From positions 1 to 17,533 of the IMG/VR virus record IMGVR_UViG_2711768056_000003: 17,533 bases of DNA. One strand, written 5' to 3'. Below the pieces are notes generated by a model that searched no databases, was not told where the DNA came from, and was given only the letters and a program-made list of their open reading frames with translations. Position 1 is the stretch's first letter. Each line of letters begins with the position of its first letter. The position numbers and the translations under genes were made by a program. This stretch comes from a virus (taxonomy: Duplodnaviria > Heunggongvirae > Uroviricota > Caudoviricetes). Below are positions 1-16,115 of this stretch, piece by piece.

Positions 1-185
1 AATGCGAGGCTAAATCCTGGTATTTGTAATGAACTGGCTCTTATCTCAACGCAGCCCCTTACTGCGCGCCAGATGCTCAATATCAAGCATCAGCAATGAG
101 ATGTTTAATCTGGATTCACTCCAGAAGTGATCACCACCCTGTCTACAGAGCCAGATGTGAAGGATGATGAGTAAAATTATCGCTA

Positions 186-623
186 TCATCGAAGGCATTG
201 CGTCCTGATGTATTCCTGCAGGTAGTTAACCTGCGCGGTTATCCTGTCGATTCCACTTCTGAGACGGTAATAATTGAGTTCAGCATCTGCTGTAAGTCTT
301 GGGCTTTCTCCATCGCCCATGCTGCTGGCTCCGGTCGTTGACTTTGCACAGGTGGCGGCGACTTGCAGGCGCTTACGACCAGCAGAAACATCAGCACGGA
401 GACTTTCGATAGTCGCGTTAGCATCAGCAAGCTCCTTTGTGTATCTGGCGTCAAGTTCTGCTACATCACGTTGACGCTTCTGCATGTCAGCGATTGTGGA
501 TGTGGCCTTATCGCGCTGCTCTTTGTAGGCGATTGCATTATCACGGTAATGATTAACAGCCCATGACAGGCAGACGATGATGCAGATAACCAGAGCGGAG
601 ATAATCGCGGTGACTCTGCTCAT
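186..623 (-). CDS. Rz: i-spanin Rz (inner-membrane spanin subunit)
   Basis: N-terminus [30 protein letters not shown] matches my memory of lambda Rz; sits directly downstream of the endolysin gene; single N-terminal TM segment then coiled-coil region. Confidence 0.9.
239..424 (-). CDS. Rz1: o-spanin Rz1 (outer-membrane lipoprotein), embedded in the +1 frame of Rz
   Basis: ORF nested entirely inside Rz; signal peptide with lipobox LLVVSAC then Pro-rich mature region ([15 protein letters not shown]), as in lambda Rz1. Start chosen at the internal Met (MLTRLSKV...), not the longer ORF-track start. Confidence 0.8.
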
Positions 624-1096
624 ACCTCAATCTCTCTGACCGTTCCGCCTGCTTCTTTGAATTTTGCAATCAGGTTGTCAGCCTTATGCTCGAACTGACC
701 ATAACCAGCGCCCGGCAGTGAAGCCCAGATATTGCTGCAACGGTCGATTGCCTGACGGATATCACCGCGATCAATCATCGGCAAAGCGCCACGCTCCTTA
801 ATCTGCTGCAATGCAACAGCATCCTGGCTTTTAGGAGAGAAGTCTTTCAGGCCAAGCTGCTTACGGTAGGCGTCCCACCAACGGGAAAGAAGCTGGTAAC
901 GTCCGGCAGCTGTTGATTTGAGTTTGGGGTTTAGCGTGACAAGTTTGCGAGGGTGATCTGAGTAATCAGTGAATAGCTCTCCGCCAACAATGACGTCATA
1001 ACCATGATTTCTGGTTTTCTGACGTCCGTTATCAGTTCCCTCTGACCACGCCAGCATATCGAGGAACGCCTTACGTTGATTATTGATTTCCACCAT
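620..1096 (-). CDS. R: Endolysin R (lambda-type lytic transglycosylase)
   Basis: 158 aa, [51 protein letters not shown]..., near-identical to lambda R as I recall it; overlaps the S stop and the Rz start. Confidence 0.95.
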
Positions 1097-1403
1097 CTTC
1101 TACTCCGGCTTTTTTAGCAGCGAAGCGTTTGATAAGCGAACCAATCGAGTCAGTACCGATGTAGCCAATGAACACGCTCGTTATATAAGCGAGATTGCTA
1201 CTTAGTCCGGCGAAGTCGAGAAGGTCACGAATGAACCAGGCGATAATGGCGCACATCGTTGCGTCGATTACTGTTTTTGTAAACGCACCGCCATTATATC
1301 TGCCGCGAAGGTACGCCATTGCAAACGCAAGGATTGCCCCGATGCCTTGTTCCTTTGCCGCGAGAATGGCGGCTAACAGGTCATGTTTTTCTGGCATCTT
1401 CAT
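1080..1403 (-). CDS. S: Holin S with dual start (Met1-Lys2-Met3: antiholin S107 / holin S105)
   Basis: 107 aa, [39 protein letters not shown]..., near-identical to lambda S; MKM dual-start motif present; three hydrophobic TM segments. Confidence 0.95.
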
Positions 1404-1998
1404 GTCTTACCCACAATAAGGGGATTTGCTCTATTTAATTAGGAATAAGGTCGATTACTGATAGAACAAATCCAGGCTACTGTGTTTAGTAATCAGATTT
1501 GTTCGTGACCGATATGCACGGGCAAAACGGCATGAGGTTGTTAGCGCAACCTCCTGCCACCGCTTTCACGAAGGTCATGTGTAGAAAGACGCAGCATAAC
1601 TATCACTGATGAATTCAGGATAGCCAGTGGCTACGGCTCAGGTTGGGTTGTGGCGGTCGGTGCTGAACTCCGACTTAATGACGATAGGCGTGTACCGACG
1701 CCTCGTTTTACTTCCTCCGCTTTCACGGCTTCACCCTAGACCAGCTTTACGAAATCCTCGTAAACCTAACCGCGGCAGATATGACCGGCACGGTGTGCCA
1801 TATCACGGACCGGCGGGTGTCTCGTTCACCTGATTAACGCATCAGCCTGCGTATTCACCACAACGATAAGAGCACTGCGCGGCACCTTTCACCAATTCCG
1901 CGAGGTCTGCGGGTTCAATGCTCTTACCTGTTGTGCAAACAAAAAAGCCACCGTTGCAACTTAAGAGTCACTAACGGCAGCTTACCCTCTAATTATGG
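1404..1998 (-). promoter_or_regulatory. Q-S intergenic region expected to carry late promoter pR', the Q-utilisation site and the late leader/terminator; exact elements not resolved
   Basis: Non-coding 595 bp between Q stop and S start, matching the lambda pR'-qut-tR' position; GC-rich and structured; the only long ORF (1627..1833) is Arg/Pro-rich junk. Confidence 0.45.
1941..1979 (-). terminator. Candidate intrinsic terminator just after Q stop
   Basis: Minus-strand RNA GCUGCCGUU-(17 nt loop)-AACGGUGGC followed by UUUUUU; 9-bp stem including two G-U pairs. The large loop makes it atypical. Confidence 0.35.
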
Positions 1999-2517
1999 CT
2001 AAATGGCTAATTGCATGTCAAGGCTTTTAACAGCAACATGCTTAACTTTCTCAACACGTTTACGCATTTTGAAAGCATTTTGCATTGGTTGGTACAAAAC
2101 AAATAATGACGCTTTCAGGATATCGTCAATTTCGTTTCTACAGGTTGCCAGTGAAGGTTTTCTCCATCCCTCGCCACCGCGTCCACACATCTTGCGTGGC
2201 TTTGCAGTCGCGTGATAGTAGGATGCAATTGCTCTCTTAGATGAACCATGAGCGTAGTAGCTGAGGAGGATGCCAAAGGCTTTCTTGTCAATGTACATGA
2301 CGGAATCGACGACCTGAGAAATCAACATTCCATCATCATCATTACACATTGGCCTTGTCATAATTCTTCCCGGCTCTACGCTCTCCATGAACTTCGCTAT
2401 TACGCTGCTCATGCGCTTTTCCAGACGACCTGAATAAACCCATGCGCCCCACAGTTCAAGCCAGCCATTCAGCCACTCGTGCTGCTCTTTGGTGAGGTTT
2501 AGTTCTCTTATGCTCAT
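1999..2517 (-). CDS. Q: Late-gene antiterminator Q (non-lambda Q family, phage 82 / QuuD-like)
   Basis: 172 aa immediately upstream of the lysis cassette; conserved LELWGAW and RPMCNDDDGM motifs plus YY pair that I recall from QuuD-type Q proteins. Confidence 0.8.
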   Translation of the reverse strand: MSIRELNLTKEQHEWLNGWLELWGAWVYSGRLEKRMSSVIAKFMESVEPGRIMTRPMCNDDDGMLISQVVDSVMYIDKKAFGILLSYYAHGSSKRAIASYYHATAKPRKMCGRGGEGWRKPSLATCRNEIDDILKASLFVLYQPMQNAFKMRKRVEKVKHVAVKSLDMQLAI

Positions 2518-2702
2518 CGTCTTCCCCTCTTGCCTTGTTTGACCATCAGGACGCCGTTAACTATTACGTGACGCTCGCCTTTGCTGTCTCGGTTGTACTT
2601 GAGCACTGTTCCTCTTGCGCAGGAAAGCATCCTCGCCACTTCGGTCTGATTGCCTCGTGTCTGGATAAGAAGCTCTGGTATCGTTTGAATTGTGGCGTTC
2701 AT
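2514..2702 (-). CDS. ninH: NinH (small HTH DNA-binding protein)
   Basis: 62 aa; ...TIPELLIQTRGNQTEVARMLSCARGTVLKY... parallels lambda NinH (GNQTEVARRL.CSRGTV.KY); ATGA start/stop overlaps with Q and rusA. Confidence 0.8.
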   Translation of the reverse strand: MNATIQTIPELLIQTRGNQTEVARMLSCARGTVLKYNRDSKGERHVIVNGVLMVKQGKRGRR

Positions 2703-3061
2703 GCGTTCTCCAGTTCGGTGATTTTTATTCCAAGCCGTCCGCCTGGTACTTTCACACCACGAATTACGCGAATGTCATCGAATTGCTCGTCGTCTTCCGC
2801 AAATCCGGCGTGGATAAGGGAGTCGAGTAAACCTTTCAGGATGTTATCGAGGTCGCGGCGGCGGGAGTCTGGAACGTCTGCGATGACTTTGATGCGGAGT
2901 CGTGATTTGGTGAAAATGTCTAACTTGAGTTGGCGGATGATTTGCTGAACGTCTTTTCGGTATTTCTGGCCTTTATCGCTGATGTAGTATTGGCTTCCCC
3001 GTCTTCGCCAGTAGGTGTTCACCGACGGCGGGTAAGGAAGCACAAACTGATATTCGTTCAT
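2699..3061 (-). CDS. rusA: RusA-family Holliday junction resolvase
   Basis: 120 aa; PPSVNTYW, DVPDSRRRDLDNILKGLLDSL and GGRLGIKITEL motifs match RusA of DLP12/lambdoid phages. Confidence 0.9.
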   Translation of the reverse strand: MNEYQFVLPYPPSVNTYWRRRGSQYYISDKGQKYRKDVQQIIRQLKLDIFTKSRLRIKVIADVPDSRRRDLDNILKGLLDSLIHAGFAEDDEQFDDIRVIRGVKVPGGRLGIKITELENA

Positions 3062-3348
3062 GGCTTAATCTTCCCCTCCTTCAGCAGGATCGCCTGCGTC
3101 CTGATCACGCCTTCGAGGTGATAAAGTCTGGCGTCTTTGTTGTCGAGATTATGGGTGCGTCGGTCGATTTCATCGTGACACGCGCTACAAGCCCATGCGC
3201 CAATCAGGTCGTCAGGTTTCATTCCCGTTCCGCAAATTCCAGCCATCCGGTAATGTGCCAGAACTGTAGTTTCAGGATTACCATTGCATACGCCGTAAAT
3301 ACGTACCTGGCATTCTCTGCCGCGTGCTTCTTTGCGTAGATTAGCCAT
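3058..3348 (-). CDS. DUF1364 / YbcO-like nin-region protein (Cys-rich, putative nuclease)
   Basis: 96 aa with conserved cysteines (CQVRIYGVCNGNPETTVLAH...CSACHDEID); typical position between roi and rusA in E. coli prophages. Confidence 0.65.
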   Translation of the reverse strand: MANLRKEARGRECQVRIYGVCNGNPETTVLAHYRMAGICGTGMKPDDLIGAWACSACHDEIDRRTHNLDNKDARLYHLEGVIRTQAILLKEGKIKP

Positions 3349-4070
3349 TAAGCAGCCTCCCCTGTTACTTTCAGCATTCCGTTATCGCGCAGCTTTCTGG
3401 TCAGCCACTGTTGACCACGCCCGGTGATTTTTGTGGTGAACGATATCTGTATTCCGTGATTTGTGTTGACCGCTGTTTCTTTCACTGTGAAATAGCCGCG
3501 ATCCATATATTCCTGCATTGGCACATTGCGCCGGGAACCTGAAGCAATAAGGATTTTGTGATCGCGCATCCACGCAAACAGTTTGTTTGGACCAATTCCA
3601 ACAACCTTTGCAAAGTTTCCAATCAAAATTCCGCTGGCCTCGCCAACGCGATCGGCAAACTCAACTTTAGGTGCGGCAATTGCGAGCTGGTTTTCCAGTT
3701 GCATTTTCTGCTCAGCAAGATCAGCAGCAAGGCGCAACGCTTCTGGTAGCGTTTTGGGGATATTAACCGCAGCTTCTTCAAGCTCTCGCCAACGGTCAAC
3801 AAGACGAGCGGTGAATTCCGGCGACAACTGAGCGACGACAATAATGCTGTCTCGCTTACCTTGTTCGCCCTCAAAAACGTAAGCCTCTACGCCACGAAGT
3901 AATCCTAAGTTATTGATTTTTTCGAAAACCACCATTGGGGGATTTCGGATCACACCTCGAGCCGCCAGTCGTTCAATAGATTGTTTCACCTTGTCATGAC
4001 GACTTCCCACCAACTCAGCGATTTCAATGCTTGTCATTTTGATGGCATTGCCATTTATTAACTCATTCAT
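3348..4070 (-). CDS. roi: Roi-like phage antirepressor / DNA-binding protein (Rha-like N-terminal domain + Ant/KilAC-like C-terminal domain)
   Basis: 240 aa; N-terminal HTH (MTSIEIAELVGSRHDKVKQSIERL) and C-terminal antirepressor-like domain; nin-region position as for HK022 roi. Confidence 0.75.
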   Translation of the reverse strand: MNELINGNAIKMTSIEIAELVGSRHDKVKQSIERLAARGVIRNPPMVVFEKINNLGLLRGVEAYVFEGEQGKRDSIIVVAQLSPEFTARLVDRWRELEEAAVNIPKTLPEALRLAADLAEQKMQLENQLAIAAPKVEFADRVGEASGILIGNFAKVVGIGPNKLFAWMRDHKILIASGSRRNVPMQEYMDRGYFTVKETAVNTNHGIQISFTTKITGRGQQWLTRKLRDNGMLKVTGEAA

Positions 4071-4239
4071 CGTCTTCTTCCTCGTACATTGAGCTATTCG
4101 GATCGCTCATCAGTTCTGCGCAGCAATCTGAGCACACGTGAACTTCCAGCACATGCAGCTTCTGACCGCAGTTAGCGCACGTTAAAGCCCGCTCGACGCT
4201 TTCTTTCTGGTATTGAATGGATTGGGATGGGCTAAGCAT
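4063..4239 (-). CDS. ninF: NinF (small Cys-rich protein)
   Basis: 58-aa ORF absent from the ORF track (below size cutoff), translated by hand: [58 protein letters not shown], very close to lambda NinF as I recall it; TAATG overlap with the upstream gene. Confidence 0.8.
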   Translation of the reverse strand: MLSPSQSIQYQKESVERALTCANCGQKLHVLEVHVCSDCCAELMSDPNSSMYEEEDDE

Positions 4240-9053: not shown

Positions 9054-9761
9054 ATGGTTCAGAATGAAAAAGTGCGCAAAGAATTCGCCCAGCGGCTAGC
9101 GCAAGCCTGTAAAGAAGCTGGTCTTGATGAACATGGTAGGGGTATGGCCATAGCCCGTGCCCTTTCTCTTTCGTCCAAAGGCGTTAGCAAATGGTTTAAT
9201 GCTGAGTCTTTACCGCGTCAGGAAAAAATGAATGCGCTTGCGAAATTTCTAAACGTTGATGTTGTTTGGCTTCAGCACGGCACTTCGTTAAATGGAGCGA
9301 ATGATGAAGATACTCTTTCATTTGTTGGCAAATTAAAAAAAGGGTTAGTGCGCGTGGTTGGTGAGGCAATTCTTGGTGTTGATGGTGCCATCGAGATGAC
9401 CGAAGAGCGCGATGGGTGGCTCAAGATTTATAGTGATGATCCAGATGCCTTTGGTCTTCGTGTGAAAGGAGACAGCATGTGGCCCAGAATAAAATCAGGA
9501 GAATATGTACTCATTGAGCCTAACACCAAAGTATTCCCGGGTGATGAGGTGTTTGTCAGAACCATCGAAGGACACAACATGATCAAGATTCTTGGCTATG
9601 ACAGAGATGGAGAATACCAGTTTACAAGCATCAACCAAGACCACAGACCAATAACGTTGCCTTATCATCAAGTAGCAAAGGTGGAGTATGTGGCTGGTAT
9701 TCTGAAGCAGTCCCGCCATCTGGATGACATCGAGGCAAGGGAGTGGCTGAAAAGTTCGTGA
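9054..9761 (+). CDS. cI: CI prophage repressor (N-terminal HTH + C-terminal LexA/S24-like autocleavage domain)
   Basis: 235 aa; N-terminal HTH; C-terminal domain with GDSMWP serine motif and downstream lysine typical of S24 self-cleaving repressors; divergent from cro. Confidence 0.9.
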   Translation: MVQNEKVRKEFAQRLAQACKEAGLDEHGRGMAIARALSLSSKGVSKWFNAESLPRQEKMNALAKFLNVDVVWLQHGTSLNGANDEDTLSFVGKLKKGLVRVVGEAILGVDGAIEMTEERDGWLKIYSDDPDAFGLRVKGDSMWPRIKSGEYVLIEPNTKVFPGDEVFVRTIEGHNMIKILGYDRDGEYQFTSINQDHRPITLPYHQVAKVEYVAGILKQSRHLDDIEAREWLKSS

Positions 9762-9878: not shown

Positions 9879-10259
9879 ATGAATGATCTTGATAAGAAAA
9901 AGTACGACCAAGTTATTGATTCTGTGAACTTCGCCCTTAGATCGTTGTCAGAGTTATTCGAAGCCCATGGAATGCATGGGATGTATGATCTAACGAATCC
10001 AAGCCTTGATGAGCTAAAATTAGTGTTTACAAGGATGAAAAACGGTGTTGACTCTATTGCTCAAAGCTTTGAGCACATGGTAGAGACAGCAAAGGATATG
10101 GATGCCGCAAGTGCAAGCATAAATGTTATGAACATCAAACAAGGATTGATGTATGCTGAATCACTATTGCTTGCTGTAGAGAAATTAGACTATGATAAAT
10201 GTGTGGAAGCAAATACGCAGATAAAAACCCACGATCTTCCACCAACCCAATGGCCTTAA
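9879..10259 (+). CDS. Hypothetical 126-aa protein in the rex position (candidate lysogen-expressed cargo gene)
   Basis: ORF directly downstream of cI on the same strand, in a visibly AT-rich segment; predicted soluble, helical; no family recognised. Confidence 0.6.
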   Translation: MNDLDKKKYDQVIDSVNFALRSLSELFEAHGMHGMYDLTNPSLDELKLVFTRMKNGVDSIAQSFEHMVETAKDMDAASASINVMNIKQGLMYAESLLLAVEKLDYDKCVEANTQIKTHDLPPTQWP

Positions 10260-10768: not shown

Positions 10769-10866
10769 GATCACCCAACCACATAAGCTGTGGGATGCAA
10801 TGCCGAAGCAACCGTCTCAGGAGGGGCTTCGAGATTGCATCGCCAAAGTTTATTCGGGAGGAATCT

Positions 10867-11139
10867 ATGTCCAGAAAAACAGAATTTAAAGGCACCGCAG
10901 CTTCTCGCCGTAGAGCTCGTCGTGCAAATCTGCAAAGTCAGGAGGCGATCAGCTCCGACAAGCTACACAGGCCAACCCCTTCACGAGTGGTCTTGCAATG
11001 CAAGCGCAAACCAGCAATGAGAGCAGAAGTAATAACACTGACAACGTTGACCAGAAAATATGAAGGCTCAACTTGTCTTCCAAACGTAGCTCTTTACGCG
11101 GCAGGCTACCGTAAATCCAAACAACTGACAGCGAGGTAA
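10867..11139 (+). CDS. N: N-like transcription antiterminator (arginine-rich motif)
   Basis: Start at MSRKTEFKGTAASRRRARRANLQ with ARM resembling lambda/P22 N; SD GGGAGG upstream; first gene after pL/nutL. Confidence 0.75.
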   Translation: MSRKTEFKGTAASRRRARRANLQSQEAISSDKLHRPTPSRVVLQCKRKPAMRAEVITLTTLTRKYEGSTCLPNVALYAAGYRKSKQLTAR

Positions 11140-11141
11140 TT

Positions 11142-11594
11142 ATGGATTTAAGTAAATTAGAAAGCTCTTTGGAAGCATCAGTAAAAAAATTTATATCAGT
11201 AATTGATGAAAAAACTGAAGATATTAAGAAAGCAAATATTATCGAACTTGTAGAAACAAGAACCAGCACATTTGAACATCTTCCTGATGATGTCCGGTCA
11301 GCGGCAATTCACGTATATGTAACGGCACTAAGCAATATTGAACCCCCAATTGATGAAGAATCAAGAGATATTCAGAGAAAACGACTTGAAATGTTAGCCA
11401 GCAACATTATCGCTGGTTTCACACGGCTCTTAGCAAAAAAGCCTGCCAGTGAAGCTATTCGCCAGCAGGCTCAGGTAATGATTAATCAGGCAGAAACTAT
11501 TTCACGTGAGCGAAAAGCATTTGATAAATCGGTTTCTGAACTTCCAACACCTCAACCGCAGCCGCTGAACCTTCCTTCTCAACAAACTGAATAA
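11142..11594 (+). CDS. Hypothetical 150-aa protein, translationally coupled to N (ral/sieB position)
   Basis: Starts 2 nt after the N stop with SD GAGG; AT-rich 5' half; C-terminal 98 bp overlap a convergent minus-strand ORF. Confidence 0.5.
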   Translation: MDLSKLESSLEASVKKFISVIDEKTEDIKKANIIELVETRTSTFEHLPDDVRSAAIHVYVTALSNIEPPIDEESRDIQRKRLEMLASNIIAGFTRLLAKKPASEAIRQQAQVMINQAETISRERKAFDKSVSELPTPQPQPLNLPSQQTE

Positions 11595-11751
11595 CTTCAT
11601 CAAGATTCTTTTTTGCATTTGTTGATTGCTCAGGCGGCATAGCAGAAACAATCGAAATGATTGCTTGCTGGAGCGCGAGGTTTTCAGTGCTCAGTTTTGA
11701 AACTCTGTCGTTTAAATCCTCAATGATTTTAACAAGAGATACATCTGACAT
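11497..11751 (-). CDS. Hypothetical 84-aa protein encoded antisense to the pL operon
   Basis: Strong SD AAGGAG 6 nt upstream of ATG; helical, coiled-coil-like sequence; opposite orientation to all neighbouring early-left genes. Confidence 0.5.
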   Translation of the reverse strand: MSDVSLVKIIEDLNDRVSKLSTENLALQQAIISIVSAMPPEQSTNAKKNLDEVIQFVEKEGSAAAVEVLEVQKPIYQMLFAHVK

Positions 11752-11764
11752 GTGAACTCCTTAT

Positions 11765-11811
11765 TTTGACTGTGGAAACAACAGTCTACCCATTTCCTTT
11801 GACTGTGGAAA
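11765..11811. repeat. Two perfect 14-bp direct repeats TTTGACTGTGGAAA, the first overlapping a 6-bp-stem hairpin
   Basis: Copies at 11765..11778 and 11798..11811; GACTGT (11768..11773) pairs with ACAGTC (11781..11786); immediately upstream of the 84-aa minus-strand gene start. Confidence 0.6.
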
Positions 11812-11961
11812 GTGAAGGAACCACCGAGCCTGATGTGGTTAAAAGACAGGCACACTAATAAACACTGCACTGTGTATTCATTCCAACGAGTGAATACACG
11901 GAGCAATGTCGCTCGTAACTAAACAGGAGCCGACTTGTTCTGATTATTGGAAATCTTCTTT

Positions 11962-11988
11962 GCCCTCCTATGTGAGGGCAATTTTTTG
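11962..11988 (+). terminator. Rho-independent terminator (tL1-like) in the pL operon
   Basis: GCCCTC-cuaugu-GAGGGC followed by AATTTTTTG; directly precedes the SD of the next gene. Confidence 0.6.
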
Positions 11989-11999
11989 ACGGAGGATAT

Positions 12000-12311
12000 A
12001 TGAAATTACGTGTCTGGCATATCCCGCAAGTACCTATGAAGCCGTTCATTGTAGAAGTGGCAAGTGTTGAAGAGGGTGTTCGCCTGATGGACGCACTGGC
12101 TGATTATGACGCCTTTCAGTATGACAACAACATCAAGCCTGATTACTGCAATGCTAACGGCCTTGAGATGTGGGATGAGAGCCTTACCGATGAAGATTTA
12201 TCAGAGATGGGGCTTACTGATCGCTGGGTGGATTGGTACAGCGAATGCCAATGTTACGACGACCCACGTAAATATCTCGAAAGCCTGAAAGAAGAAACAT
12301 CAGCCGCCTAA
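12000..12311 (+). CDS. Hypothetical strongly acidic 103-aa protein
   Basis: SD GGAGG 5 nt upstream; large excess of Asp/Glu over Lys/Arg; early-left operon position. Confidence 0.6.
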   Translation: MKLRVWHIPQVPMKPFIVEVASVEEGVRLMDALADYDAFQYDNNIKPDYCNANGLEMWDESLTDEDLSEMGLTDRWVDWYSECQCYDDPRKYLESLKEETSAA

Positions 12312-12386
12312 GCGCGGCTTTACCGCATACCAATAACGCTTCACTCGAGGCGTTTTCGTTATGCAATCAAACAGAAGGAGCATCCT

Positions 12387-12557
12387 ATGCAACAGTTCGC
12401 TATTGCAGGGGCGGCATCGGTTCGCCCTTTCAACCCGATTTTATCGGTACAGCATTCACGAAAAAATATTTTAACCGGAGCAGACTTTAAACAACCAAGA
12501 ATGAAAAGTTTGCTCGAAAAGCTTTGGGATATTTTGAAACAACAAGGCCGTCCATGA
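12387..12557 (+). CDS. cIII: CIII-like protein (FtsH/HflB inhibitor protecting CII)
   Basis: Hand-translated 56 aa MQQFAIAGAASVRPF...LLEKLWDILKQQGRP; N-terminal MQ.AIAG and C-terminal L.DIL.Q.G.P parallel lambda CIII; SD AAGGAG. Confidence 0.65.
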   Translation: MQQFAIAGAASVRPFNPILSVQHSRKNILTGADFKQPRMKSLLEKLWDILKQQGRP

Positions 12558-12664
12558 GTTTTACAGATAACTGGTCAGACGAAGAATTCATTCGTCAGAT
12601 GAACAAAATGCTCAATCAGCACAAAGAACAGGAGAAAGATGATGATTCTGACTCTGAAAGATGA
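12554..12664 (+). CDS. Small acidic ORF (36 aa), translationally coupled to cIII (kil position)
   Basis: ATGA overlap with the cIII stop; MSFTDNWSDEEFIRQMNKMLNQHKEQEKDDDSDSER; overlaps the start of the next ORF in another frame. Confidence 0.3.
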   Translation: MSFTDNWSDEEFIRQMNKMLNQHKEQEKDDDSDSER

Positions 12665-12950
12665 GCGTGAAATATCGCAAATAATCGCAAGTTTTACTGA
12701 TGAAGATTACGAACGAATCAAAAGTGAAGTTGATCGCCTCTGCAAACGTTGCGACCCAATAAGCGAAATGCTTCGCTCATATAAACCAGATGAACACACT
12801 AAGGACGCTATCGACTGGCTGGAAGATTATGACTGTAACTATCAGGAAAAAGCCGCTGAATGGTTCTGGGATGCAATAACCGAAAGAGTTAAGGCTGAAT
12901 ATGCCTTCGCAATATTCAAACGCAGACATATTTATGGAGAAGCTGCATGA
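12639..12950 (+). CDS. Hypothetical 103-aa protein upstream of recT
   Basis: Long ORF with ATGA overlap to recT; acidic; no family recognised. Confidence 0.55.
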   Translation: MMILTLKDEREISQIIASFTDEDYERIKSEVDRLCKRCDPISEMLRSYKPDEHTKDAIDWLEDYDCNYQEKAAEWFWDAITERVKAEYAFAIFKRRHIYGEAA

Positions 12951-13858
12951 GCAATATCGTTGAATTCGTTAAACAGCAAGAGCAGTTATTCTGCGGAGCA
13001 TTGACTGAACAGACGGTGACATGGGCTAAGGAAAGCCAGTTTGCAATTCAGTATTTCCAGAAAAATGATTACCTGGCTAAAACGGCACTGGCAAATCCAA
13101 CCAGCGCACAGAACGCCATCATCAATGTTGCGGCGATCGGCATCACCTTAAACCCGGCCAGCAAACTGGCTTATCTGGTTCCTCGCGACGGCATGGTGTG
13201 CCTTGATATCAGTTATATGGGATTGCTCCATATTGCAATGGAGTCTGGTGTTATCTCATGGGGTCAGGCAAAACTTGTTCATGCTAACGATACCTATGAG
13301 TCAAACGGGCTTGATAAAGCACCAACCCATAAATACAACGCCTTCGGTGATCGTGGTGATATCGTTGGCGTTTACTGCACAGTTAAGACGCCAGCAGGTG
13401 ATTATCTAACGGAAGAGATGAGTCTGGCTGAAATTGAGGCTGTAAGGAAAACAAGCAAGGCGGCATTCAGCGATAAAGGACCATGGGTAAATCACTGGAA
13501 TGAGATGGCGCGAAAGACGGTCGTAAAGCGTGCAAGCAAGTATTGGCCTAAGGCATCACGTCTTGATAGTGCTATTCACGTACTAAACGAAGAAGAAGGT
13601 GTGTGGACTGAACCAGTTATGCCGCACAAATCAGAGGAAGATATCCGCGAAGATGAACGGAAACGCCAGCAGGAAATAACGGATAAAGCACAACTTCTTT
13701 GCGATGAAATGGCTCAGGCAGAAAACATGGATGATTTGAAGCGATATTTTGCAGAAGCATATCGCCTGACATCTGGAATGAAATTGCAGCAGAACGTACA
13801 AGCCATTTACATAGAATGCAAAGCGAAACTGGAGGTTGCCAGTGAGCAAACTGTATGA
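12947..13858 (+). CDS. recT: RecT-family single-strand annealing recombinase
   Basis: 303 aa; GPWVNHWNEMARKTVVKRASKYWP parallels Rac RecT GPWVTHWEEMAKKTAIRRLFKYLP. Confidence 0.9.
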   Translation: MSNIVEFVKQQEQLFCGALTEQTVTWAKESQFAIQYFQKNDYLAKTALANPTSAQNAIINVAAIGITLNPASKLAYLVPRDGMVCLDISYMGLLHIAMESGVISWGQAKLVHANDTYESNGLDKAPTHKYNAFGDRGDIVGVYCTVKTPAGDYLTEEMSLAEIEAVRKTSKAAFSDKGPWVNHWNEMARKTVVKRASKYWPKASRLDSAIHVLNEEEGVWTEPVMPHKSEEDIREDERKRQQEITDKAQLLCDEMAQAENMDDLKRYFAEAYRLTSGMKLQQNVQAIYIECKAKLEVASEQTV

Positions 13859-14324
13859 AATAGCCAATGAATACGCAAAGCTGATGGATTCAGATTTAGA
13901 GCCAGAGATGATTGCTGACACAATAGAAGGCATGGAAGGAGAATTTACCGATAAAATAGAGCAACTTCTTGCCATTATTAAAAATGAATCTGGTTATGCT
14001 GAACGCCTCAAGGAAGAGGCAAAGTCACTGAATGAGCGAGCCGCAGTAATTCAAAATAAGATTGAGAGCATCAAATCATATATAGCGTCATCGCTTGAAA
14101 TGGTTGGCAAGAAAAAGATTCGAGCAGGTATTCACCAGGTAACAATCCGCAAACCGTCAGAAACTGTAGAAATCATCGACTCAAGCGCCCTTCCTCCTGA
14201 ATACGTTGAGTTTGAAACGACAATTAAAGCCGACAAACTGGCAATCAAACACCAACTAAAAGCAGGAATAAATATCCCCGGCGCTCAACTCAAAGTTGGG
14301 AAACCTTCACTTCTTATCAAATAA
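13842..14324 (+). CDS. Gp157/Gam-like protein (possible host-nuclease inhibitor); GTG start
   Basis: About 160 aa with N-terminal coiled coil; SD GGAGG 6 nt before GTG at 13842; overlaps the recT 3' end; family assignment from memory only. Confidence 0.5.
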   Translation: MSKLYEIANEYAKLMDSDLEPEMIADTIEGMEGEFTDKIEQLLAIIKNESGYAERLKEEAKSLNERAAVIQNKIESIKSYIASSLEMVGKKKIRAGIHQVTIRKPSETVEIIDSSALPPEYVEFETTIKADKLAIKHQLKAGINIPGAQLKVGKPSLLIK

Positions 14325-15579: not shown

Positions 15580-16115
15580 GCAAGATTGACTATCAGGCAC
15601 TGCGTGAAAAGGCAGAGAAAGCAACGTGTGGTGTGTGGTCGCTCGAATATGGAGAGAGCCGATTTGATTGTGATGATGCGCTAATTCATCGTGAAGTTGT
15701 TGGATATCTTCCCATTTGCAGAATTGAAGGAGCGCATCCAGAAAGCGGTTTCGATGAAGATTTCCAAATGGAACAGCAGGCCAATGCTGAATTCATCGCC
15801 GCAGCCAATCCCGCTACCGTGCTGGCGCTGCTGGATGAGCTGGAAGCAGCAGAGAACAACCTTATTGATAGTGAGTGCCACGGTGCTGAACTTGAAGAAT
15901 CGCTACGCGATAAGCAGGCGTTACTTGAATCATCAGAGAAGCGCATTGCTGAGCTATCGCGCCACCTCCAATGCGCGCACGACTTTATCGAACATACAGA
16001 GGCGTTTGGCTACGAAGCTTCAAACGGGATTCTGTGCTGTGGTGATGCGCAGTGGAATATCGATTCTTCTAAGGCAGCGTTGGCATCAGCTGGCAGCGTC
16101 AACGGGGAGGGCTAA
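15576..16115 (+). CDS. Ead/Ea22-like protein
   Basis: N-terminus [25 protein letters not shown]... typical of Ead/Ea22-like prophage proteins; ATGA overlap with the upstream gene. Confidence 0.7.
   Translation: MSKIDYQALREKAEKATCGVWSLEYGESRFDCDDALIHREVVGYLPICRIEGAHPESGFDEDFQMEQQANAEFIAAANPATVLALLDELEAAENNLIDSECHGAELEESLRDKQALLESSEKRIAELSRHLQCAHDFIEHTEAFGYEASNGILCCGDAQWNIDSSKAALASAGSVNGEG

Follow-up and report, generated by a model that had tools for sequence, protein, structure and literature searches.

Among the closest described relatives of the gene considered here is gene 17 of the Salmonella phage P22. Its product (Swiss-Prot P14109) is the founder of Pfam family PF17420, is 103 aa long and is strongly acidic, with 25 Asp+Glu against 8 Lys+Arg, and the gene lies in the pL operon between the N-type antiterminator gene (N/24) and cIII. 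Pfam gives the family the title 'GP17, superinfection exclusion gene product 17', and the names carried by Pfam, PHROG and RefSeq alike read 'superinfection exclusion protein'. The only functional statement that we found says the opposite: gene 17 is reported, in a passage of PMC4837284 that cites Susskind & Botstein (1978), to release P22 from exclusion by the prophage Fels-1. Full-text literature searches yielded no mechanistic study of the gene.

The family extends well beyond P22. It includes gp17 of H-19B, an Stx phage, and the protein that Stx phages and E. coli prophages carry under the name 'superinfection exclusion protein'. It also includes N4 gp18, Vi01_111c and gp057 of the Bacillus phage SP-10, whose genes belong to arrays of small early genes in strictly virulent phages rather than to a pL operon. 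A second point of comparison is provided by T7 Ocr, ArdA and lambda Ral, which like gp17 are small early accessory proteins; Ocr and ArdA share its strong acidity, and Ral is encoded in the same accessory region. Here we compare these systems with a gene 17 homologue found at 12000-12311 (+ strand) of the window, by which we mean the whole stretch of 17,533 nucleotides that was analysed.

Genomic context

The phage records that best match the window, among them HK140, HK022, HK620 and mEp506, do so with a coverage of only 40-52% and an identity of 95-98%, and the window is a mosaic early region from an E. coli phage or prophage of the lambdoid or P22-like kind. The genes named below all lie on the + strand, and their order from cI to RecT is that of a pL operon read from left to right. 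A cI-type repressor gene (9054-9761) is followed directly on its 3' side by a 126-aa ORF without an assigned function (9879-10259; PHROG 16322), then by an N-like antiterminator gene (10795-11139), a 150-aa ORF (11142-11594), the gene 17 homologue, cIII (12387-12557; PHROG 550), a RecT-like annealing protein gene (12947-13858) and a Mu Gam-like protein gene (13836-14324). The succession of N, gene 17 and cIII matches that of P22 and H-19B. A reading made earlier from the sequence alone had called the 103-aa product an early protein, and the run of cI, N, the 150-aa ORF, a terminator, gene 17, cIII and RecT on a single strand agrees with that description.

Two stretches of this map differ from lambda. 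The 126-aa ORF, directly after cI, occupies the slot that rexAB fills in lambda, and is a candidate for a moron or defence gene expressed in the lysogen. To the right of cIII, a recombination module (12639-14324, +) combines a 103-aa protein of PHROG 3486 with the RecT-like annealing protein and the Mu Gam-like end-protection protein, a set that differs both from the Gam/Bet/Exo genes of lambda and from the Abc/Erf genes of P22.

The gp17 homologue and its family

The ORF at 12000-12311 runs from an ATG through 103 codons to its stop. It recurs at at least 95% identity in 135 of 5,426 complete E. coli genomes and has homologues in 326 phage records, and we therefore take the gene to be real. 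The protein holds 23 Asp+Glu and 9 Lys+Arg, its calculated pI is 4.14, its net charge at pH 7 is close to -14, and it contains 4 Trp and 6 Tyr; the excess of acidic residues and the Trp/Tyr content remarked on by the sequence-only reading are thus borne out by the counts. It is one of the three most acidic of the window's ORFs of 50 aa or more. Two further small ORFs are strongly acidic, each to the same degree per residue as gp17: one of 115 aa at 15768-16115 (+), where acidic residues are in excess by 16, and one of 58 aa at 4063-4239 (-), where the excess is 9 and where there is a Cys-rich motif. The gp17 homologue has no hydrophobic segment: its maximum 19-residue Kyte-Doolittle hydropathy is 1.02, whereas transmembrane segments usually reach about 1.6, and its GRAVY is -0.59.

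That reading had recognised no family, and in this it was wrong. Residues 1-98 align with positions 1-98 of the 98 in the PF17420 profile, scoring 186.8 bits where the cut-off is 25 (E 7.3e-56), and PHROG 1510 is matched at E 5.7e-58. An NCBIfam search returned no meaningful match. We regard it as practically certain that the ORF is a gp17 orthologue and a member of PF17420. The gene is, moreover, an already known one, annotated in other phages and carried as a common cassette of lambdoid and P22-like phages. By tblastn against phage records, the protein is identical (100%) to one of an Stx1a phage, 96.1% identical to H-19B gp17, 93.2% to 17 of ST64T and 88.3% to P22 gp17. Proteins of the same size and acidity in the virulent phages are 43-65% identical to it, with N4 gp18 at 64.6%, those of Vi01-like myophages at about 55% and those of Bacillus phages (SP-10 and relatives) at about 43%; a protein of a Mycolicibacterium phage follows at 37%, over half the length.

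From P22 gp17 the window protein differs by 12 substitutions, most of them in the acidic loop (residues 56-73) and none at an invariant residue; the host is E. coli rather than Salmonella, and upstream there is no ral or sieB but instead the 150-aa ORF and an 84-aa ORF on the opposite strand. From H-19B and the other Stx phages and E. coli prophages, whose proteins are 96-100% identical, there is essentially no difference beyond the mosaic background: leader, terminator and gene are the same.

A family profile built from 69 homologues, searched against clusters formed at 50% identity, retrieved 1,198 cluster representatives with the limit set at E <= 1e-3, and 785 with a limit of E <= 1e-10. 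The hosts represented are those of Enterobacteria, Bacillus and Mycolicibacterium phages, and the carriers include both temperate and virulent phages, of Gram-negative as well as Gram-positive hosts. Among the best 150 representatives nearly all are standalone proteins of about 100 aa. The positions that are invariant or nearly so are W6, P9, Q10, P12, F16, L33, A34, Y36, D37, F39, Q40, K46, P47, D48, Y49, N51, G54, W76 and W79, and the window protein has P9, Q10, L33, Y36, D37, F39, Q40, K46, D48, Y49, N51, W76 and W79, the same invariant residues as P22 gp17. Acidity is likewise a property of the family: over 110 representatives the mean excess of Asp+Glu over Lys+Arg is 11.6 ± 3.9, the excess is at least 8 in 89%, and the mean pI is 4.4. 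The charge sits mostly in the C-terminal half, and the loop with the highest acidity (59-75) is constant neither in length nor in sequence. The cysteines C50, C83 and C85 are not conserved, and a metal site was rejected on that ground.

Fusions are sporadic. Among 37 long representatives there is no recurrent partner; each of the following occurs in a single representative: PF13876 (Acb4), DUF6166, an H-NS C-terminal domain, an RNAP alpha-CTD-like domain, DUF3553 and a HAD-like domain. The first of these, a protein (P0155) that joins a GP17 domain to a PF13876 domain, is present on four contigs. Its locus (L005 5001-5615, on the 128-kb JGI metagenome contig Ga0484792_00046) lies in an array of small phage genes with a NADAR-domain protein and a pyrimidine-dimer glycosylase. 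PF13876 is the Acb4 family of anti-CBASS sponges (PMC11722364), and the single fusion to it is only a hint.

Predicted structure

With an alignment of 69 sequences, AlphaFold gave a confident model (pLDDT 92.7, pTM 0.81); a model made without an alignment was unusable (pLDDT 47). The predicted topology is beta(3-8), beta(16-20), alpha(23-42), beta(52-58), alpha(64-70), beta(76-78) and alpha(89-102). The model matched no solved structure significantly, known DNA mimics included, and sequence searches of the PDB, both with the single sequence and with a profile, returned chance matches only. Structure searches of the PDB gave no functional analogue and no fold match to Tad1, Tad2, Acb2 or Acb4-type proteins. 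The best structural neighbour is ERH (enhancer of rudimentary homologue), a small, dimeric nuclear adaptor protein of eukaryotes, with a TM-score of 0.42-0.48, below significance, and an identity of 5-10%; the predicted likeness is at most an analogy of folds and no evidence of relatedness.

The gp17 cassette

Gene 17 travels as part of a block that is also present in further phages of the lambdoid and P22-like groups. In a comparison with 80 related IMG/VR loci, the homologous stretch around the gene starts at 11850-11870 of the window in 47 and at about 11900 in 19, and it mostly ends at 12320-12400; megablast break points agree. From these limits we take the unit that moves between phages to be a structured leader, a terminator, the gene itself and a second, terminator-like hairpin, and we place it at 11857-12390 (+). 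The leader hairpin (11862-11909), found in a repeat search, is an inverted repeat with 22-nt arms and a perfect 12-bp core, GUGUAUUCAUUC/GAGUGAAUACAC. Behind it stands an intrinsic terminator at 11960-11987, recovered by a terminator scan and evident in the sequence: the hairpin (11960-11981) is TTGCCCTC-CTATGT-GAGGGCAA, with an 8-bp stem that includes 5 GC pairs and a 6-nt loop, and is followed by a tail of six T residues. The Shine-Dalgarno sequence GGAGGA (11991-11996) ends 3 nt before the ATG, and the ORF thus begins directly after the terminator, as had been noticed from the sequence. Between gene 17 and cIII the scan found the terminator-like hairpin, AACGCTTC-ACTC-GAGGCGTT (12335-12354), which with the following TTCGTTAT extends to 12361.

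No sigma-70-like promoter was found on the + strand between 11700 and 12000. The RNA fold computed for 11855-12005 (+) is unusually stable (-52.6 kcal/mol, z = -5.7; no shuffled sequence did equally well), and in the minimum-free-energy structure an AUCUUCU stretch before the terminator pairs with the Shine-Dalgarno GGAGGAU, a predicted pairing that could couple translation to read-through. A search of the whole window, the gp17 leader included, gave no Rfam family at gathering score.

What precedes the cassette varies from phage to phage. Among 67 related loci, ral lies within 1.3 kb in 14, and beside ral there are several families without an assigned function; the interval from N to cIII is a classic variable accessory region.

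Function of gp17

Overall, we lean, if only by a little, towards the view that gp17 is an early counter-exclusion factor, expressed from pL once N has acted. This view draws on synteny, on the anatomy of the locus and on the P22 report, and it is the release from Fels-1 described for P22 in the cited passage of PMC4837284 that, by homology, would make gp17 a counter-defence factor. The report concerns P22 in Salmonella, a different phage from the E. coli phage considered here, and the phenotype is presumed to hold for the present gene.

The general pathway can be outlined on this basis. Gene 17 lies in the leftward early (pL) operon of a lambdoid phage or prophage of mosaic make-up, behind an intrinsic terminator; because of that terminator, and because no promoter-like site was found in front of the gene, gp17 would not be made until N has brought about antitermination, which places its synthesis in the first minutes of lytic growth or after induction. 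The protein, probably soluble, compact and composed of a single alpha/beta domain, would then bind and neutralise a factor that otherwise aborts the infection, a stoichiometric interaction between proteins; in P22, to judge from the passage in PMC4837284, this factor would be one that the resident prophage, Fels-1, specifies. Binding probably takes place on a surface made up of an invariant aromatic/polar cluster (W6, P9-Q10, Y36-D37-x-F39-Q40, K46-P-D48-Y49-x-N51, W76 and W79) and the conserved acidic C-terminal half, and through this patch and acidic surface gp17 would contact directly an effector or sensor of the prophage or host.

The variable accessory neighbourhood with ral speaks for an anti-exclusion role, as do the one Acb4-type fusion and the NADAR-domain gene in the locus of that fusion. 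At the same time, some of the evidence counts against it. Structure searches found no functional analogue, and ST64T gene 17 (AAL15493.1), which was included as UDP0144, annotated '17?', in the ECOR screen of 200 accessory genes by Silas et al. (bioRxiv 10.1101/2023.04.06.535777), is absent from their list of conditional-lethal and counter-defence phenotypes in ECOR strains. Since the same screen recovered Ocr, Ral and ArdA (bioRxiv 10.1101/2023.04.06.535777), the absence of UDP0144 counts, if weakly, against an anti-restriction role of broad scope. Two other genes of that study, orf184 and orf24, which trigger prophage abortive systems, were considered as gp17 and rejected, gp17 being UDP0144.

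A bolder proposal, which we find possible but rather doubtful, is that the gp17 family as a whole is a class of acidic immune antagonists directed against a widely conserved effector of abortive infection or exclusion, which they would engage by mimicry of nucleic acid or through the invariant aromatic pocket. If this were true, the target of gp17 would define a new mechanism of anti-defence and reveal the exclusion system of Fels-1-type prophages. The family is, in any case, a reasonable, though not a new, target for anti-defence work.

Of the alternatives, the one that survives best, though we think it unlikely, is that gp17 is a host-takeover factor unrelated to immunity, acting for instance on RNA polymerase, a nucleoid protein or another conserved housekeeping protein, with the Fels-1 phenotype an indirect consequence. 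A family so broad, with 1,198 clusters and with members in Enterobacteria, Bacillus and Mycolicibacterium phages, suggests a target that is conserved very widely; the N4 gene follows the RNAPII genes; sporadic fusions join the domain to the C-terminal domain of H-NS and to a domain like the alpha-CTD of RNAP; and the nearest structural neighbour, albeit a non-significant one, is the small dimeric adaptor ERH. However, the fusions are single instances, and the gene is dispensable and patchy, occurring in 135 of 5,426 E. coli genomes, against 2,274 that match the region around it, and it moves as an exchangeable cassette in the manner typical of accessory genes.

Less likely again is that gp17 mimics nucleic acid, its carboxylate-rich surface blocking a restriction enzyme, RecBCD or another nuclease. 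This was the direction taken by the sequence-only reading, whose broader idea of an anti-defence protein agrees with the P22 phenotype as reported in PMC4837284, whereas its specifics of DNA mimicry, anti-restriction and anti-nuclease action are left unsupported. The strong negative charge of the protein (about -14 for 103 residues, pI 4.1), the spread of this acidity through the family (mean excess 11.6, at least 8 in 89% of 110 representatives) and the proximity of ral in many phages would all suit a mimic. Yet gp17 resembles none of the solved DNA mimics in sequence, profile or fold, and the most acidic loop (59-75) is variable in length and sequence, while strict conservation falls mostly on aromatic or amide side chains, with one Lys, rather than on an array of carboxylates. 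In addition, phages with gp17 already possess dedicated Ral, anti-RecBCD or Gam functions, and the screen that recovered Ocr, Ral and ArdA did not report ST64T 17 among its hits (bioRxiv 10.1101/2023.04.06.535777). Apart from size and timing, the charge of Ocr and ArdA and the genomic place of Ral, gp17 differs from these proteins: it shares neither sequence nor fold with them, has no reported anti-restriction phenotype, and has a conserved core that is aromatic and polar.

We consider it improbable that gp17 serves as a sponge or enzyme for small signal molecules of immunity, for example cyclic nucleotides or nucleotides derived from ADP-ribose. The protein is small, its invariant aromatic/polar cluster could stack against a base and hydrogen-bond to it, and the fusion to the Acb4 sponge family (P0155, on four contigs) recalls the use of fusions to Tad2 or Acb4 in the discovery of new sponge families (PMC12265669). 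That study, however, sought positively charged pockets, and its main text makes no mention of the GP17 family, while gp17 is strongly acidic and only one of its invariant residues is basic, the fusion is confined to 1 of 37 long representatives, and neither PDB structure searches nor sequence comparison related gp17 to Tad1, Tad2, Acb2 or Acb4-type proteins.

That gp17 is literally what its name in Pfam, PHROG and RefSeq says, a protein with which a lysogen blocks incoming phages, is scarcely credible: the only functional statement found, that in PMC4837284, is release from exclusion; the gene stands behind a terminator in an N-dependent operon, with no promoter of its own detected for expression in a repressed prophage; the protein has no signal peptide and no membrane segment (maximum 19-residue hydropathy 1.02 versus about 1.6); PADLOC defence models match neither it nor four neighbouring ORFs; and homologues occur in strictly lytic phages (N4 gp18, Vi01_111c, SP-10 gp057), which never form lysogens and are hard to reconcile with an exclusion function expressed from a prophage. 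Given the phenotype as cited in PMC4837284, the position of the gene, the missing promoter and membrane anchor and the virulent carriers, the label 'superinfection exclusion protein' is very probably a misnomer that states the reverse of the function.

Genes beside the cassette

The interval to the left of the cassette has features of its own. On the minus strand, an 84-aa ORF (11497-11751) has a good Shine-Dalgarno sequence, AAGGAG, 6 nt 5' of its ATG at 11751, and it overlaps the 3' end of the 150-aa ORF (11142-11594, +) by 98 nt. Lying between N and the gp17 cassette and directed leftward, it has the place and orientation of sieB in P22. Neither ORF has a PHROG or PADLOC match, and in the one related E. 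coli chromosome that was inspected RefSeq annotates the 150-aa ORF and not the 84-aa ORF.

The commonest immediate upstream neighbour of gp17, present in 20 of 67 loci, is a 156-aa protein of PHROG 1636 (WP_000167595-like), found for example at L051 3387-3857 and in 19 other IMG/VR loci, and in phage 06-3462 (L002 2521-2991); in some E. coli prophages this protein fills the slot where gp17 is lacking. In the window, a 14-nt perfect direct repeat, TTTGACTGTGGAAA, occurs in two copies 33 nt apart (11765-11778 and 11798-11811), just upstream, in the minus sense, of the 84-aa ORF and just to the left of the cassette boundary, and may be an operator or promoter element.
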